Source: an uncultured Ruminococcus sp.
GTDB taxonomy: Bacteria > Bacillota > Clostridia > Oscillospirales > Ruminococcaceae
Reading direction: 5' to 3'
Assembly (NCBI GenBank): GCA_944388405.1
Contig: CALXIQ010000036.1
Span: forward strand, 301 to 64,300
Length of the DNA: 64,000 bases
Part shown: piece by piece, positions 51,260 to 55,705 of the stretch
Position numbering within the stretch: the stretch's first letter is position 1
Layout: every line of letters begins with the position of its first letter
Notes under the pieces: generated by a model
Told to the model about the DNA's origin: nothing
Seen by the model: only the letters and a program-made list of their open reading frames with translations
The model's database searches: none
Made by a program: the position numbers and the translations under genes

Positions 51260-52297
51260 ATGGCAGTTAAAGTCGCAATTAATGGTTTTGGACGTATTGG
51301 ACGTCTTGCATTCAGACAGATGTTCGGCGCAGAGGGTTATGAGGTAGTTGCTATCAACGACCTTACAAAGCCTTCAATGCTGGCTGATCTTCTTAAGTAT
51401 GATACAGCGCAGGGCGGTTACTGCGGTAAGATCGGTGAGAATCTTCACACTGTAGAGGCTGACGATGAGGCAGGCACAATTACAGTTGACGGCAAGACTC
51501 TTAAGATCTATGCTATGGCAAACGCAGCTGAGCTTCCTTGGGGAGAAATCGGCGTAGACGTTGTTCTCGAGTGCACAGGTTTCTATTGCTCAAAGGCTAA
51601 GTCACAGGCTCACATTGACGCAGGCGCTAAGAAGGTTGTTATCTCTGCTCCTGCAGGCAACGATCTGCCTACTATTGTATATTCCGTAAACGAGAAGACT
51701 CTTACAGCTGACGATACAATCATTTCAGCAGCTTCTTGTACAACAAACTGTCTTGCTCCTATGGCTAAGGCTCTTAACGATTATGCTCCTATCCAGAGCG
51801 GTATCATGTCAACAATTCACGCTTACACAGGCGACCAGATGATTCTTGACGGTCCTCACAGAAAGGGCGACCTGAGAAGAGCAAGAGCAGGTGCAGCTAA
51901 CATTGTTCCTAACTCTACAGGTGCTGCTAAGGCTATCGGTCTTGTTATCCCCGAGCTGAACGGAAAGCTTATCGGTTCTGCTCAGAGAGTTCCTGTTCCT
52001 ACAGGTTCTACAACAATCCTTACCGCTGTAGTTAAGGGTTCTGACGTTACAGTTGAGGGCATCAACGCTGCTATGAAGGCTGCTGCTTCCGAGTCCTTCG
52101 GTTACAACACTGATCCTATCGTTTCTTCCGACGTTATCGGTATGAGATATGGTTCGCTGTTCGACGCTACTCAGACAATGGTTGCTAAGATTGCTGACGA
52201 CCTCTATCAGGTTCAGGTTGTTTCTTGGTACGACAACGAGAATTCTTACACATCACAGATGGTAAGAACTATCAAGTATTTTGCTGAGCTTGGCTAA
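51260..52297 (+). CDS. gap: Glyceraldehyde-3-phosphate dehydrogenase (type I)
   Basis: [34 protein letters not shown]; strong codon bias. Confidence 0.97.
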
Positions 52298-52311
52298 TTA
52301 AGTTAAATCGT

Positions 52312-52350
52312 AAAGCCTCTGACCGAAAATCAGGTCAGAGGCTTTATTTT
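52312..52350. terminator. Terminator between gap and XRE gene
   Basis: AAAGCCTCTGACC/GGTCAGAGGCTTT. Confidence 0.85.
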
Positions 52351-52377
52351 TTTGAAGATAACCGACAGCGGCAGACT

Positions 52378-52590
52378 TTATCTGTTGGTGGCTTTTTTAT
52401 CGGTACGATTGAGAATATAGTCTACCGATACATTGTGAAAGTCCGCAAGCTTTATCAGTATCTCGGTGGGGATGTCCAAATCGCCTCGTTCATAGTTGCT
52501 GTAAACACGCTGACTGCAGTTCAAAATTTTAGCGATTTCGGTTTGAGTCATATCGGCATCCTCGCGGAGATTTCTTATTCTGGCATACAT
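52378..52590 (-). CDS. XRE-family HTH transcriptional regulator (70 aa)
   Basis: RIRNLREDADMTQTEIAKILNCSQRVYSNYERG...ILIKLADFHNVSVDYIL; RBS AAAAGGAG before ATG 52590. Confidence 0.92.
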   Translation of the reverse strand: MYARIRNLREDADMTQTEIAKILNCSQRVYSNYERGDLDIPTEILIKLADFHNVSVDYILNRTDKKATNR

Positions 52591-52673
52591 ATTAATACTC
52601 CTTTTGGTATATTTACACAAAAAACAACACAAAACTTTGTTAATATTATTATAGTTTATAGCGACTTTTAGTA

Positions 52674-52787
52674 TTGACTTATAGCGTAAAATCCGCTATA
52701 ATATAATTAAGAAATGAATATAAGACTGATTACATTCAGCTTAACCATTTCTTTTTATTTTATTATATTTTAGCGGATTATCCGCTA
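52674..52787 (+). promoter_or_regulatory. Promoter with two palindromic putative XRE operators
   Basis: TTGACT-17-TATAAT (52674-52702); TAGCGTAAAATCCGCTA (52682-98) in the spacer; TAGCGGATTATCCGCTA (52771-87) abutting the RBS. Confidence 0.75.
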
Positions 52788-52803
52788 AGGAGGAGTTTGT
52801 ATT

Positions 52804-53001
52804 ATGGAAGCTTTATTGTTGGTATTTTTAATTTTAGCGGGAATAGCAATTTATTTTATTCCGACGATTATTGCGTTTGTGAGGGGAAGAATAAATAAAG
52901 GAGCTATTTTATGCATGAATCTGTTTTTAGGCTGGTCCTTTATCGGCTGGGTAGTTGCCTTGATCTGGGCTGTCAAGGAGCCTGATAACGTTGGAAAATA
53001 A
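52804..53001 (+). CDS. Superinfection immunity protein (T4 Imm-like, small membrane protein)
   Basis: YFIPTIIA..R......I..MNLFLGWSFIGWVVALIWA signature. Confidence 0.85.
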   Translation: MEALLLVFLILAGIAIYFIPTIIAFVRGRINKGAILCMNLFLGWSFIGWVVALIWAVKEPDNVGK

Positions 53002-53827
53002 CGCTGCGATAAAATTAGGCGTAGTATTTTCCGGAGGTATTGCAAAAGGCGCATATGAGGTGGGATTTATGTCTGCCTTAAGCAGACATCGGAGATTTTC
53101 CGTAGCAGCCATATCAGCCGCATCGATTGGTGCTCTTAACGGATACGCTCTTTCGTCAGGGAAGCTGATCGAAGCGGAAACGCTTTGGAAATCGGTTGAT
53201 ATTAAAAGCGTAACGGGTATGTATCGTCAATTGCTTAAACGACATAGGATATATGAGTTTGTGGACAAAATATTCAGCGAGGATGACAAGCTGGAGAATC
53301 CTTTGTATATTGTATGTCTGCCGGCTTCCTCTGTTCAGCCTCAATACATATTGCTTAACGACTTGTCGGCAGTTGATAAAGAGAAATTTTTAAAGGCGTC
53401 AATATCTGTTCCCGTTGTTATGGAGCCGGTATTAATCAACGGTACAAAATATTTTGACTGAGCGATACTGGATAATACTCCGATTAAGCCTTTACTGTCT
53501 TATCGTCTTGATTTGATTGTTGCGATTCAGTTTGACGATTATGTTCAGTCAGACCTTACAAATTGCGGATGTCCCGTTTTGTACCTGAATTTACAGAACA
53601 AAAGTCACATAAAGGACAGCTTTGTTGTTGACGCCAAGGCAGTTGAGTATATGATAAGTTACGGCTTTGATGTGTCTGACGATCTGCTTACTTTAATTGA
53701 AAACTCATTTTCGGATTATGGCAGATTTATTGCTTTAATTCAACGCTATAATTCGTGTTTGAAGAAAGGCGGAATAAATGCTGACAGAATAGTAAGCAGA
53801 ATTAACAGGCTCAGCCGTATTCGCTGA
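52991..53827 (+). pseudogene. Patatin-like phospholipase interrupted by one in-frame TGA (53459-53461)
   Basis: GGIAKGAY oxyanion motif, AASIG nucleophile elbow, ASISVP, YFD*AILDNTP catalytic-Asp motif; frame continues to TGA 53827. Confidence 0.8.
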
Positions 53828-53841
53828 GGAGAGGATTGTTT

Positions 53842-53982
53842 ATGAACAGATTTATAATATCTTTGGGAGTGACGGCGTTAGTTATGCTAACGGTGTCAGT
53901 TGGTTATTTAACTTTAAGGCAATTATTTAAAAGCGTTGATTTCCTGAAAAAATTGTTTGTTGCATTAAATAAGAAATCATAA
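53842..53982 (+). CDS. 46-aa small membrane protein (not in ORF track)
   Basis: RBS GAGGAGAGG, ATG 53842, MNRFIISLGVTALVMLTVSVGYLTLRQLFKSVDFLKKLFVALNKKS*. Confidence 0.6.
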   Translation: MNRFIISLGVTALVMLTVSVGYLTLRQLFKSVDFLKKLFVALNKKS

Positions 53983-54026
53983 CGGGAAAATCATATTGAG
54001 AGTAAATAATACCTCCATCATAATTT

Positions 54027-54051
54027 AGCCGTCCTTAAGGGCGGCTTTTTT
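54027..54051 (+). terminator. Intrinsic terminator closing the imm-patatin unit
   Basis: AGCCGTCC-TTAA-GGGCGGCT + TTTTT. Confidence 0.75.
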
Positions 54052-54132
54052 GCGTATATATGCAAAAAGCCGTTGAAAAAGCTCGAATATTGTGATATAA
54101 TAAATGCAATAAATATTTTAGGGGGCTTTGGC

Positions 54133-54423
54133 ATGAACGATGTTTTGCAGACCTTTCTCGATGAGGAGATAACCGATGCGGTGTATAATGAGCTGTGGAA
54201 TTTCGTGTCCTCAGATTCGGTAGTAAGGGGAACTTTCGAGTGCTCAAACCATGTGGTGATGAAAATTTCTCCCACTCAGTTTGTTATCTACAGAATACGC
54301 ATAGGGGTGGAAAACACCAAGTGTCAGCCTGCAGTGCTGGTGGCGAAAACATTCTTTCTGAAAAAAATAAACAGCAAGGCGTATGAAAGACGGCTGCCGG
54401 ATATACAGAACATTTTTGACTAA
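54133..54423 (+). CDS. Hypothetical protein (96 aa) upstream of rarA
   Basis: GGGGG RBS, ATG 54133, 13-nt gap to rarA; no family recognised. Confidence 0.6.
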   Translation: MNDVLQTFLDEEITDAVYNELWNFVSSDSVVRGTFECSNHVVMKISPTQFVIYRIRIGVENTKCQPAVLVAKTFFLKKINSKAYERRLPDIQNIFD

Positions 54424-54436
54424 AGGAGATGCGCAA

Positions 54437-55705
54437 ATGTCGGTTCCATTGGCTGAAAGAATACGTCCCAAAACCCTTGACGACGTGGTGGGACAGCCGC
54501 ACCTGCTGGGAAAAGACAAGCCGTTGCGACGGATAATCGAAAGCGGCAGGATACCCAATATGATTTTTTACGGTCCGTCCGGAATAGGAAAGACTACCGT
54601 AGCAAGGATTATTGCCGAAAACGCCAACATGACAATGCACAAGCTTAACGGCACTTCCGCGTCCATTGCCGATATAAAACAGATTGTAGCTGAAACAGGC
54701 ACCCTAAGCGGAATAGGCGGAATACTGCTTTATCTGGACGAGATACAGTATCTCAACAAAAAACAGCAGCAGTCGCTGCTTGAATATATAGAGGACGGAA
54801 GCATTACCCTTATTTCCTCAACCACTGAAAATCCCTATTTTTATGTGTATAACGCAATAATAAGCCGCTCCACCGTGTTTGAGTTCAAGCCTCTTACTCC
54901 CGAGGAGATAATGCCGGCAATAAAGCGGGCGTTTCAGATATGCGCCGATGAGCTGGGACTGAAGCTGCGGCTTGAAAGCGGAGTGTGCGAGCACATCGCC
55001 AGAGGCTGCGGGGGAGATGTGAGAAAGTCCATAAACACCGTTGAGCTGTGTATTCTTTCTGCGGATAACGACGGCAGCTCACTTACGGTAAGCATGGATA
55101 CGGTAAAACTCCTTACCCAGCGCAGCAATATGAAATACGACCGTGACGGCGATCAGCATTATGATATTCTTTCGGCTTTGCAGAAGTCCATAAGAGGGTC
55201 TGATGAAAACGCTGCCCTTCATTACGCTGCACGGCTTATCGAAGCCGGGGATATTATTTCTCTTTCACGCCGCCTGCTGGTCATCGCCAGCGAGGATGTG
55301 GGGCTTGCCTATCCACAGGCTGCGGCGATTACCAAGGCGTGCGTGGACAGCGCAATGCAGCTTGGGCTCCCGGAGGCGAGAATACCTCTTGCCGAAGCGG
55401 TGGTGCTGCTTGCAACCGCTCCCAAATCAAACAGCTCCTATCTTGCAATGGACGCCGCCCTTAAGGACGTAAGACAAGGCGGAGCGCTTGATTTCCCGAG
55501 ACATCTCCAGAATAAGCATTTTGACGGTGAGGACGCAGTGGTAAAGGGTCAGCATTATCTGTATCCTCACGATTTCCCCAATCACTACGTGGAGCAGCAG
55601 TATCTGCCCGACGCCTTGAAGGACAGGGTGTATTACAAATTCGGCGACAATAAAAATGAACAGCTTGCCTTGCAGTACAGAAATAAAATAAAAGGCGGAA
55701 AATAA
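54437..55705 (+). CDS. rarA: Replication-associated recombination protein A (MgsA/RarA AAA+ ATPase)
   Basis: PLAERIRP, YGPSGIGKT, LDEIQ, TTENPYF, SALQKSIRGSD, ASEDVG, YLYPHDFP. Confidence 0.93.
   Translation: MSVPLAERIRPKTLDDVVGQPHLLGKDKPLRRIIESGRIPNMIFYGPSGIGKTTVARIIAENANMTMHKLNGTSASIADIKQIVAETGTLSGIGGILLYLDEIQYLNKKQQQSLLEYIEDGSITLISSTTENPYFYVYNAIISRSTVFEFKPLTPEEIMPAIKRAFQICADELGLKLRLESGVCEHIARGCGGDVRKSINTVELCILSADNDGSSLTVSMDTVKLLTQRSNMKYDRDGDQHYDILSALQKSIRGSDENAALHYAARLIEAGDIISLSRRLLVIASEDVGLAYPQAAAITKACVDSAMQLGLPEARIPLAEAVVLLATAPKSNSSYLAMDAALKDVRQGGALDFPRHLQNKHFDGEDAVVKGQHYLYPHDFPNHYVEQQYLPDALKDRVYYKFGDNKNEQLALQYRNKIKGGK

Follow-up and report, generated by a model that had tools for sequence, protein, structure and literature searches.

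An Imm–patatin cassette with a broken lipase gene in an uncultured Ruminococcus sp., probably the decayed form of a cassette that occurs rarely in gut and rumen Clostridia

A single member of the phage T4 Imm family has been characterised, and it blocks the entry of phage DNA into the cell. We know of no role for the members of this family that are encoded on bacterial chromosomes. Patatins are known suicide effectors, and CapV and CapE, the patatin-fold lipases of the cyclic-oligonucleotide-based antiphage signalling system (CBASS), are membrane-destroying executioners of abortive infection. To our knowledge, the patatin effectors known so far are fired by nucleotide signals, as in CBASS, and few defence systems have been tested in gut Clostridia. 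Here we describe an islet of 1.7 kb in a stretch of 64,000 nucleotides from an uncultured Ruminococcus sp. (contig CALXIQ010000036.1; the whole stretch is referred to below as the window), in which a gene of the Imm family is followed by a gene for a patatin-like lipase. The lipase gene is interrupted by a stop codon, and intact versions of the same gene set are found in other gut and rumen Clostridia. We suggest that the locus has decayed from a four-gene cassette that is rare in these bacteria and moves horizontally among them, and that the cassette acts as a membrane-level conflict module. The anatomy of the cassette and the break in the lipase, taken alone, we regard as very likely to be as described; the whole statement, with its function included, is plausible, and we stop just short of calling it probable.

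The islet lies between gap and a 96-aa open reading frame (ORF) followed by rarA. It holds an XRE-family gene on the minus strand, divergent from an operon of three genes on the plus strand:

52378 to 52590, minus strand: XRE-family putative repressor gene, 70 aa, with ATG at 52590 (HTH_3, E = 6e-14)

52804 to 53001, plus strand: Imm_superinfect (phage T4 Imm family, PF14373) gene, 65 aa

52991 to 53828, plus strand: patatin-like phospholipase gene (PF01734), with a TTG start and an 11-nt overlap with the end of the Imm gene

53842 to 53982, plus strand: gene for a 46-aa peptide with one predicted membrane helix and a basic amphipathic tail, with the ribosome-binding site GGAGAGGA, 13 nt past the patatin stop

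The original prediction, made from the sequence of the window, had described an XRE gene divergent from an operon of an Imm-like protein, a translationally coupled patatin, and a 46-aa membrane protein. All of these parts are confirmed by the ORFs and by profile matches. The match of the Imm protein to PF14373 is 65.8 bits, against a cut-off of 27.9, with all 42 model positions covered, and that of the N-terminal piece of the patatin to PF01734 is 55.1 bits, against a cut-off of 27.7.

The patatin frame is split by a single in-frame TGA at 53462–53464, and gene callers give two products of 156 and 104 aa. This TGA is the sole lesion in 840 nt, and the frame is open on both sides of it. Alignments of 10 and of 43 relatives show that the TGA falls on the invariant Gly of the D-G-A motif, which is catalytic. 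Every relative examined has an intact D-G-A, while no continuous polypeptide in the window carries it; the N-terminal piece retains the Gly-rich loop, the Ser, and the Asp. The TGA is present, with the same 156 + 104 aa split, in 11 of the 11 strain loci aligned (the window and 10 others). The 156-aa truncated product, in four protein variants, was found in the NCBI, ENA, and Logan assemblies, where 53 contigs and 74 index blocks have it. An error of sequencing or assembly at the TGA was rejected, since the same split is seen in independent assemblies and in four variants. Because the stop lies on the Gly of the catalytic motif in every strain sampled, the local lipase cannot act as an abortive lipase, and the gene merits annotation as a pseudogene in this genome. 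Recoding of TGA was considered as well and rejected: TGA is an ordinary stop here, closing 205 of 849 long ORFs (24%), and the 45 tRNA genes found include neither one with the anticodon UCA nor a tRNA-Sec.

Is the local lipase nevertheless still made? Low-level read-through of the UGA, or a two-piece enzyme of 156 + 104 aa, could provide some activity, with the stop keeping a dangerous enzyme scarce. This would suit a sole lesion in a frame that is open on either side and kept in all strains, as well as an N-terminal piece that has the Gly-rich loop, the Ser, and the Asp. Furthermore, low-level decoding of UGA by tRNA-Trp is known in Bacillus subtilis. However, TGA is a common stop in this genome, with no suppressor tRNA or tRNA-Sec to read it, and the residue lost is a Gly that is invariant in 43 relatives, so that tRNA-Trp would insert a bulky residue into the catalytic turn. 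The diversity among strains is also too low for showing constraint past the stop. We therefore consider residual production of the enzyme very unlikely, and we treat the local lipase as broken.

The intact lipases of other genomes have about 278 aa, with a Ser–Asp dyad, no signal peptide, and no extra domain, and their last ~60 residues are helical. The Gly-rich loop is SGG[IFM][AS]KG in nearly all relatives, in which Ser45 and D-G-A are also conserved; it reads SGGIAKG in the window lipase and its closest relatives. The nucleophile elbow is altered. It is A-A-S-I-G in the window and [A/S]-x-S-x-G across the Imm-linked clade, so that the first Gly of G-x-S-x-G is replaced. The altered-elbow lipases linked to Imm are probably still active. 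An AlphaFold model of an intact relative (P0004) has a predicted local distance difference test score (pLDDT) of 86 and a predicted template-modelling score (pTM) of 0.86. Its best structural matches in Foldseek, every one a patatin, are PlpD, with template-modelling (TM) scores of 0.60–0.67, then CapE and CapV (TM ~0.6), then VipD, plant patatin, and ExoU. PlpD is also the best match in a profile search of solved structures with the lipase (E = 7e-22). The NCBIfam model RssA gives 40 bits with the lipase, against a cut-off of 272. The lipase has no match in PHROGs, and none in PADLOC at E ≤ 1, the CapV and CapE models included.

A search with the lipase protein returned a tight group of 275–283 aa, 42–53% identical, and a second group of about 300 aa, about 33% identical. 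All members of the close group with upstream DNA at hand have an XRE gene on the opposite strand, an Imm gene (61–68 aa), and a lipase gene that overlaps or abuts the Imm gene. With the original prediction came the question of whether these genes occur together elsewhere, and they do: the order of XRE on the minus strand, Imm, and overlapping patatin is shared by no fewer than six patatin lineages of Clostridia from gut or rumen, and the lipases of the cassettes elsewhere are intact. The housekeeping genes around the cassette are different each time, and a gene order that comes back in unrelated contexts is more than chance. The contigs and genomes concerned are as follows:

L013 to L016: metagenome contigs, flanked by an ABC transporter and YebC

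L018 and L019: metagenome contigs, flanked by an M20 peptidase and PnuC

L027 and L028: short metagenome contigs, with one uncharacterised ORF downstream

L039: a metagenome-assembled genome (MAG) of Eubacteriaceae

L040, L041, L042, L047, L076, and L077: MAGs of rabbit-gut Clostridia, flanked by MnmA and a dehydrogenase

A maximum-likelihood tree groups the Imm-linked lipases in a single clade, with support of 100/99. No Imm gene was found near lipase relatives at ≤36% identity in about 25 loci. Likewise, in a scan of JGI metagenomes the full-length matches are all at ≤36% identity to the lipase, and all are without Imm. The clade is rare: about 9–10 clusters (at 50% identity) score above 275 bits among 1.84 billion representatives, and the next best scores 216 bits. 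Five or six clade members (P0088 and P0091–P0095) are known from this representative search alone and stand outside the survey of contexts. Among the species of the genus sampled, no other carries the cassette. A different pairing was seen in two Christensenellaceae-like MAGs (L045 3186–5169 and L046 3209–5142), in which a divergent XRE gene accompanies a patatin gene of 318–349 aa that overlaps the gene of a 240-aa zinc-ribbon polytopic membrane protein, with no Imm.

The Imm protein of the window also matches phrog_1039, 'immunity to superinfection' (E = 2e-21), and a tblastn search with it found 1313 phage records, the best at 48–54% identity. Read from the sequence, it has hydrophobic stretches at about residues 3–25 and 34–56, with the basic loop RGRINKG between them, and is predicted to have two transmembrane helices. 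This pattern of two helices and a basic loop is kept in six cassette lineages. Of 201 genomes sampled across the order, seven have PF14373, and the cassette is present in three of these. No fusion of Imm and lipase was found among the top 150 representatives. In one of the rabbit-gut cassettes (L042 3318–3492, = L077, G064) the Imm gene lacks 17 nt at the 5' end by comparison with sister genomes and is out of frame, and the lipase gene beside it is intact, with 276 aa. This lesion is either real decay or an error of the MAG.

The exact 46-aa peptide was found on 45 contigs. Peptides of 39–55 aa, at 20–35% identity, occupy the equivalent position in L013/L015, L017, L018, L027, and L039. L017 is a contig of the L013 lineage in which the upstream region is missing, and the small peptide still follows the lipase there. 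A peptide with one transmembrane helix and a basic tail thus follows the lipase in five of six lineages.

A two-helix membrane protein, an enzyme, and a one-helix peptide with a basic tail together look like a lysis cassette. The cassette could then serve a function other than conflict, such as membrane lipid remodelling, programmed autolysis, or the release of cell contents, with the small proteins acting in the manner of holin and antiholin and the lipase as the lytic enzyme. The stand-alone lipases of the sister clade, whose neighbourhood conserves the sporulation-linked genes yaaL and bofA in synteny, would fit with this. However, neither Imm nor the small peptide has a match among the Pfam holins. 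The distribution is very patchy, with some 9–10 clusters at 50% identity and a single species of the genus among those sampled, the islet is AT-rich, and the loss of the cassette in several lineages suits accessory cargo. We consider a physiological role of this kind distinctly unlikely.

The 213 bp between the XRE and Imm genes hold a compact control region:

52674 to 52702, plus strand: operon promoter, TTGACT, a 17-nt spacer, and TATAAT, agreeing with the consensus at 11 of 12 positions

52682 to 52698, no strand assigned: putative operator O1, a 17-bp palindrome TAGCG-N7-CGCTA between −35 and −10, with its 3' end entering −10

52709 to 52753, plus strand: leader hairpin close to the 5' end (−12.8 kcal/mol), with a U-rich tract after it

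52771 to 52787, no strand assigned: putative operator O2, a second TAGCG-N7-CGCTA, which abuts the Imm ribosome-binding site

52787 to 52794: Imm ribosome-binding site, AAGGAGG

The 2.15-Mb genome has just two exact copies of the TAGCG-N7-CGCTA motif, 89 bp apart and both within the islet. We infer that the XRE protein binds the two palindromes as operators. The layout of −35, operator, and −10 is also seen in L018, L019, L027, L039, and L067/L068. The full order of −35 (TTGAC), O1, −10, leader hairpin, O2, and ribosome-binding site is common to five cassettes, those of the window, L018, L019, L027, and L039. The leader hairpin is at the equivalent spot in the latter four, with a sequence that differs from locus to locus and a stability of −9 to −14 kcal/mol overall; it may be an attenuator or a stabiliser of the mRNA. 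No Rfam family matches the leader RNA. The XRE protein of the window is about 90% identical to those of L018, L027, and L039, whereas the lipases of the same cassettes are only 41–45% identical to the window lipase. The L013 cassette has another class of XRE (108–113 aa) and other palindromes, of the ACACA-N4-TGTGT type, at the same two positions. This conserved promoter design with two operators strengthens the view, present in the original prediction, that the operon is switched by XRE. The 70-aa XRE protein is without a sensor domain. It matches the phage repressor family phrog_8 (E = 5e-20) and, weakly, the helix-turn-helix (HTH) models of PADLOC, capH among them (E from 1e-7 to 7e-6). The layout of two operators is what would be expected for the tight repression of a harmful product. 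A type II toxin–antitoxin system with XRE as the antitoxin was rejected, since the XRE gene is read in the other direction, from a promoter of its own, and the Imm gene stands between it and the lipase gene.

The strain loci differ from one another by 0.2–0.4%. In the window strain there is a diverged tract of 618 nt (52336–52953) with 9 differences (1.5%), which takes in XRE, Imm, and the operators, and has the appearance of a recombination patch. The coding differences in this tract are synonymous in 6 of 6 cases, four of them in Imm and the other two in a single Arg codon of XRE. On this pattern of substitutions, XRE and Imm look as if they remain constrained. One further change of the tract sits in the spacer of O1. 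The lipase shows zero differences between the two main haplotypes and three singletons (two amino-acid changes and one synonymous change), and no further lesion has accumulated in it. In a low-coverage strain assembly (L038), a deletion of 48 bp (window 52592–52639) takes the ribosome-binding site and the 5' region of XRE, and the remaining cassette is unchanged, the TGA included. XRE, Imm, and the small peptide are intact in this species, and of the cassette's action no more than an Imm protein under the control of XRE survives.

The edges of the islet are defined by the following features:

51260 to 52297, plus strand: gap

52310 to 52347, plus strand: terminator hairpin after gap, at the left edge of the islet (15-pair stem, then a T-run)

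54027 to 54046, plus strand: terminator of the operon, closing the islet on the right (8-pair stem, then a T-run)

54133 to 54423, plus strand: conserved 96-aa ORF, with rarA directly downstream

54437 to 55705, plus strand: rarA

On the left, DNA similarity to the closest relative, G014, stops at the gap stop codon (52297); on the right, similarity to G014 and to a second species of the genus, G013, picks up again at about 54047–54064. The GC content is 0.376 in the islet, 0.451 in the genome, 0.468 in gap, and 0.499 in rarA. The description of the islet as an AT-rich unit bounded by terminators therefore stands, with terminator-like hairpins on both sides. Ten large ORFs within about 8 kb of the islet, housekeeping or metabolic genes and a two-component pair, were scanned: pgk, tpi, gpmI, a cellulase of glycoside hydrolase family 5 (GH5), a histidine-kinase-like gene, an S1-domain gene, a beta-lactamase-family gene, an amylase, a response regulator, and one without a Pfam match. 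None of these ten is a cyclase, an integrase, or a phage gene, which agrees with the earlier statement that neither a cyclase nor an integrase is present.

These flanks bear on another explanation put forward at the outset, that the islet is a prophage moron relic, the remnant of a degraded prophage that carried Imm. The Imm family is overwhelmingly phage-encoded, and the XRE protein matches a phage repressor family, phrog_8. However, no structural, integrase, or lysis genes of a phage flank any cassette examined. The lipase, for its part, has no PHROGs match, no relative in a scan of viral contigs (IMG/VR), and no close relative among plasmids or phage genomes; the matches in the phage collection are at 25–30% identity. 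An origin from a prophage is very improbable. Of the phrase 'prophage moron relic', the word relic is apt for this genome, where the lipase is broken, and the prophage part finds no support.

What else occupies this site in the genus? We compared the spacers between gap and the 96-aa ORF (window 52298–54047; L063 2172–2588; L064 3095–5370; L065 1841–2121; L067–L074), and their contents vary among species. The closest relative, G014, whose RarA is 97% identical, has a spacer of 416 bp with a 75-aa ORF. In G013 the spacer is 2.3 kb, with two other XRE genes and small membrane proteins like DUF4190 and DUF2752, and in G020 a C-terminal XRE remnant is alone in the spacer. Since the contents differ between species, the islet of the window is one of several alternative cargoes at the site. 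By these comparisons, the gap–rarA spacer is a hotspot of cargo swapping in the genus, and decay there is recurrent. The 96-aa ORF to its right (54133–54423) has its own near-consensus promoter at 54073–54101 and is 85–88% conserved across the genus; it has no match in Pfam, NCBIfam, PHROG, or PADLOC.

The double operator and the recurrent decay would also suit a toxin–immunity or addiction module, in which the lipase is a self-directed toxin, the coupled Imm protein is its antidote, and the pair persists selfishly. A small protector gene that comes first and an enzyme gene that overlaps it resemble the logic of type II toxin–antitoxin systems, tight repression from two operators fits a toxic product, and the cassettes are isolated islets among housekeeping genes, outside defence islands. 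However, we know of no PF14373 member that is an antitoxin, and stand-alone relatives of the lipase (~33% identity) exist without Imm. In G064 (L042/L077) the Imm gene is apparently frameshifted beside an intact lipase gene, with the reservation that this is a MAG and an assembly error is possible. Furthermore, Imm seems to stay constrained in the window species despite its dead lipase. We consider an addiction module unlikely.

We return to the membrane-level conflict module as the reading we prefer. A role in exclusion or abortive infection is the one that we favour, tentatively and by analogy, because the characterised Imm protein keeps phage DNA from entering, most of the family is carried by phages, patatins serve as suicide effectors, the distribution is patchy, and loss is recurrent. 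How might an intact cassette work? Imm and the small peptide would hold the lipase at the membrane's inner face, or gate it there, Imm itself would block or sense the entry of the phage genome, and the lipase would destroy the membrane once this entry barrier fails, giving exclusion plus abortive infection. The intact cassettes could thus constitute a new membrane-level anti-phage system of Gram-positive gut anaerobes, in which Imm blocks or senses entry, Imm and the one-helix peptide license a tethered patatin to kill without a nucleotide messenger, and a portable two-operator XRE switch silences the unit and marks the cargo-swapping hotspot by gap. In this full form, the proposal is possible and, to our minds, doubtful. 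The 'entry block plus abortive lipase' defence of the original prediction survives to this extent: its anti-phage function would follow from the roles of the two families, and its abortive lipase is lost from the local copy, with the stop on the D-G-A Gly.

Several observations weigh against a conflict module. No model of PADLOC-DB v2 matches Imm, the lipase, or the small peptide, and the XRE protein is matched by generic HTH models. None of the cassette contexts examined lies in a defence island, a prophage, a plasmid, or a viral contig, so that the proximity to defence islands or prophages for which one might look is not seen. The cassette contains no sensor and no cyclase. In the L040 group no small peptide was seen. 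A second abundant species, Ruminococcus-like, has the same switch next to gap, with a 90%-identical XRE and the same promoter–operator region, and the cargo is a transmembrane protein of about 90 aa with a pAdhesive_15 protein. Because the same switch drives unrelated cargo there, the XRE/operator switch is portable, generic, and uninformative on function. Finally, selection on the lipase fragments is not measurable, because strain diversity is too low.

The pairing of Imm (PF14373) with a patatin was not found in full-text literature searches, which included papers on membrane-level defence and on the discovery of modular defence systems. The original prediction recognised no named system in this combination, and within the literature searched the pairing indeed seems undescribed; it appears to be a new arrangement of known parts, with no new component. 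The partnership of Imm and lipase provides a concrete hypothesis for the bacterial members of the T4 Imm family. If it is true, a lipase gated by small membrane proteins would represent a different logic of activation from that of the known patatin effectors. Few defences act where the phage enters, among them SNIPE, Zorya, and Kiwa (PMC13190303). The cassette would, if our proposal is right, join these entry-site defences. The two-operator promoter and its leader hairpin make up a compact and easily studied regulatory unit, and the family of intact cassettes is a reasonable and moderately interesting candidate for experiments.

How does the cassette compare with systems that are already described? 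PlpD, the passenger of a type Vd secretion system in Pseudomonas aeruginosa (PDB 5FYA and 5FQU), resembles the cassette lipase in that both are compact, with little beyond the patatin core. However, PlpD is an exported protein with POTRA and beta-barrel domains fused to it, whereas the cassette lipase is without a signal peptide or those domains. The stand-alone clostridial patatins of the sister clade (300–312 aa, located by yaaL/bofA, ~33% identity) share the fold and the catalytic motifs with the cassette lipase, and the similarity extends through the C-terminal helical region. They differ in having no Imm, XRE, or small peptide beside them, and in the canonical G-x-S-x-G of their elbow, as opposed to the [A/S]-x-S-x-G of the Imm-linked clade.

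The control region is similar to those of the C-proteins of restriction–modification systems and of regulators of the CapH and BrxR type, which also combine a small divergent HTH gene with palindromic operators over the cargo promoter. The matches of the XRE protein, however, show a likeness general to HTH proteins; its 70 aa include no sensor domain, and in another species the switch controls cargo of an unrelated kind. With CBASS, the cassette shares a cytosolic patatin-fold lipase with a Ser–Asp dyad, and the structural similarity to CapV and CapE is appreciable (TM ~0.6, with Foldseek E values of 1e-8 to 1e-10). Unlike CBASS, there is no cGAS/DncV-like nucleotidyltransferase (CD-NTase) or other signal generator, either among the ten large ORFs within ~8 kb of the islet or in the intact cassettes. 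The lipase is also shorter than CapV and CapE, with about 278 aa as compared with about 300–340, and it is partnered by two small membrane proteins where CBASS uses a nucleotide signal. The likeness to T4 Imm is that the Imm protein of the window is a small inner-membrane protein with two predicted transmembrane helices and a match to the family model well above the cut-off. It differs from T4 Imm in its setting, since its gene is chromosomal, translationally coupled to that of a lipase, and locked by an XRE gene.

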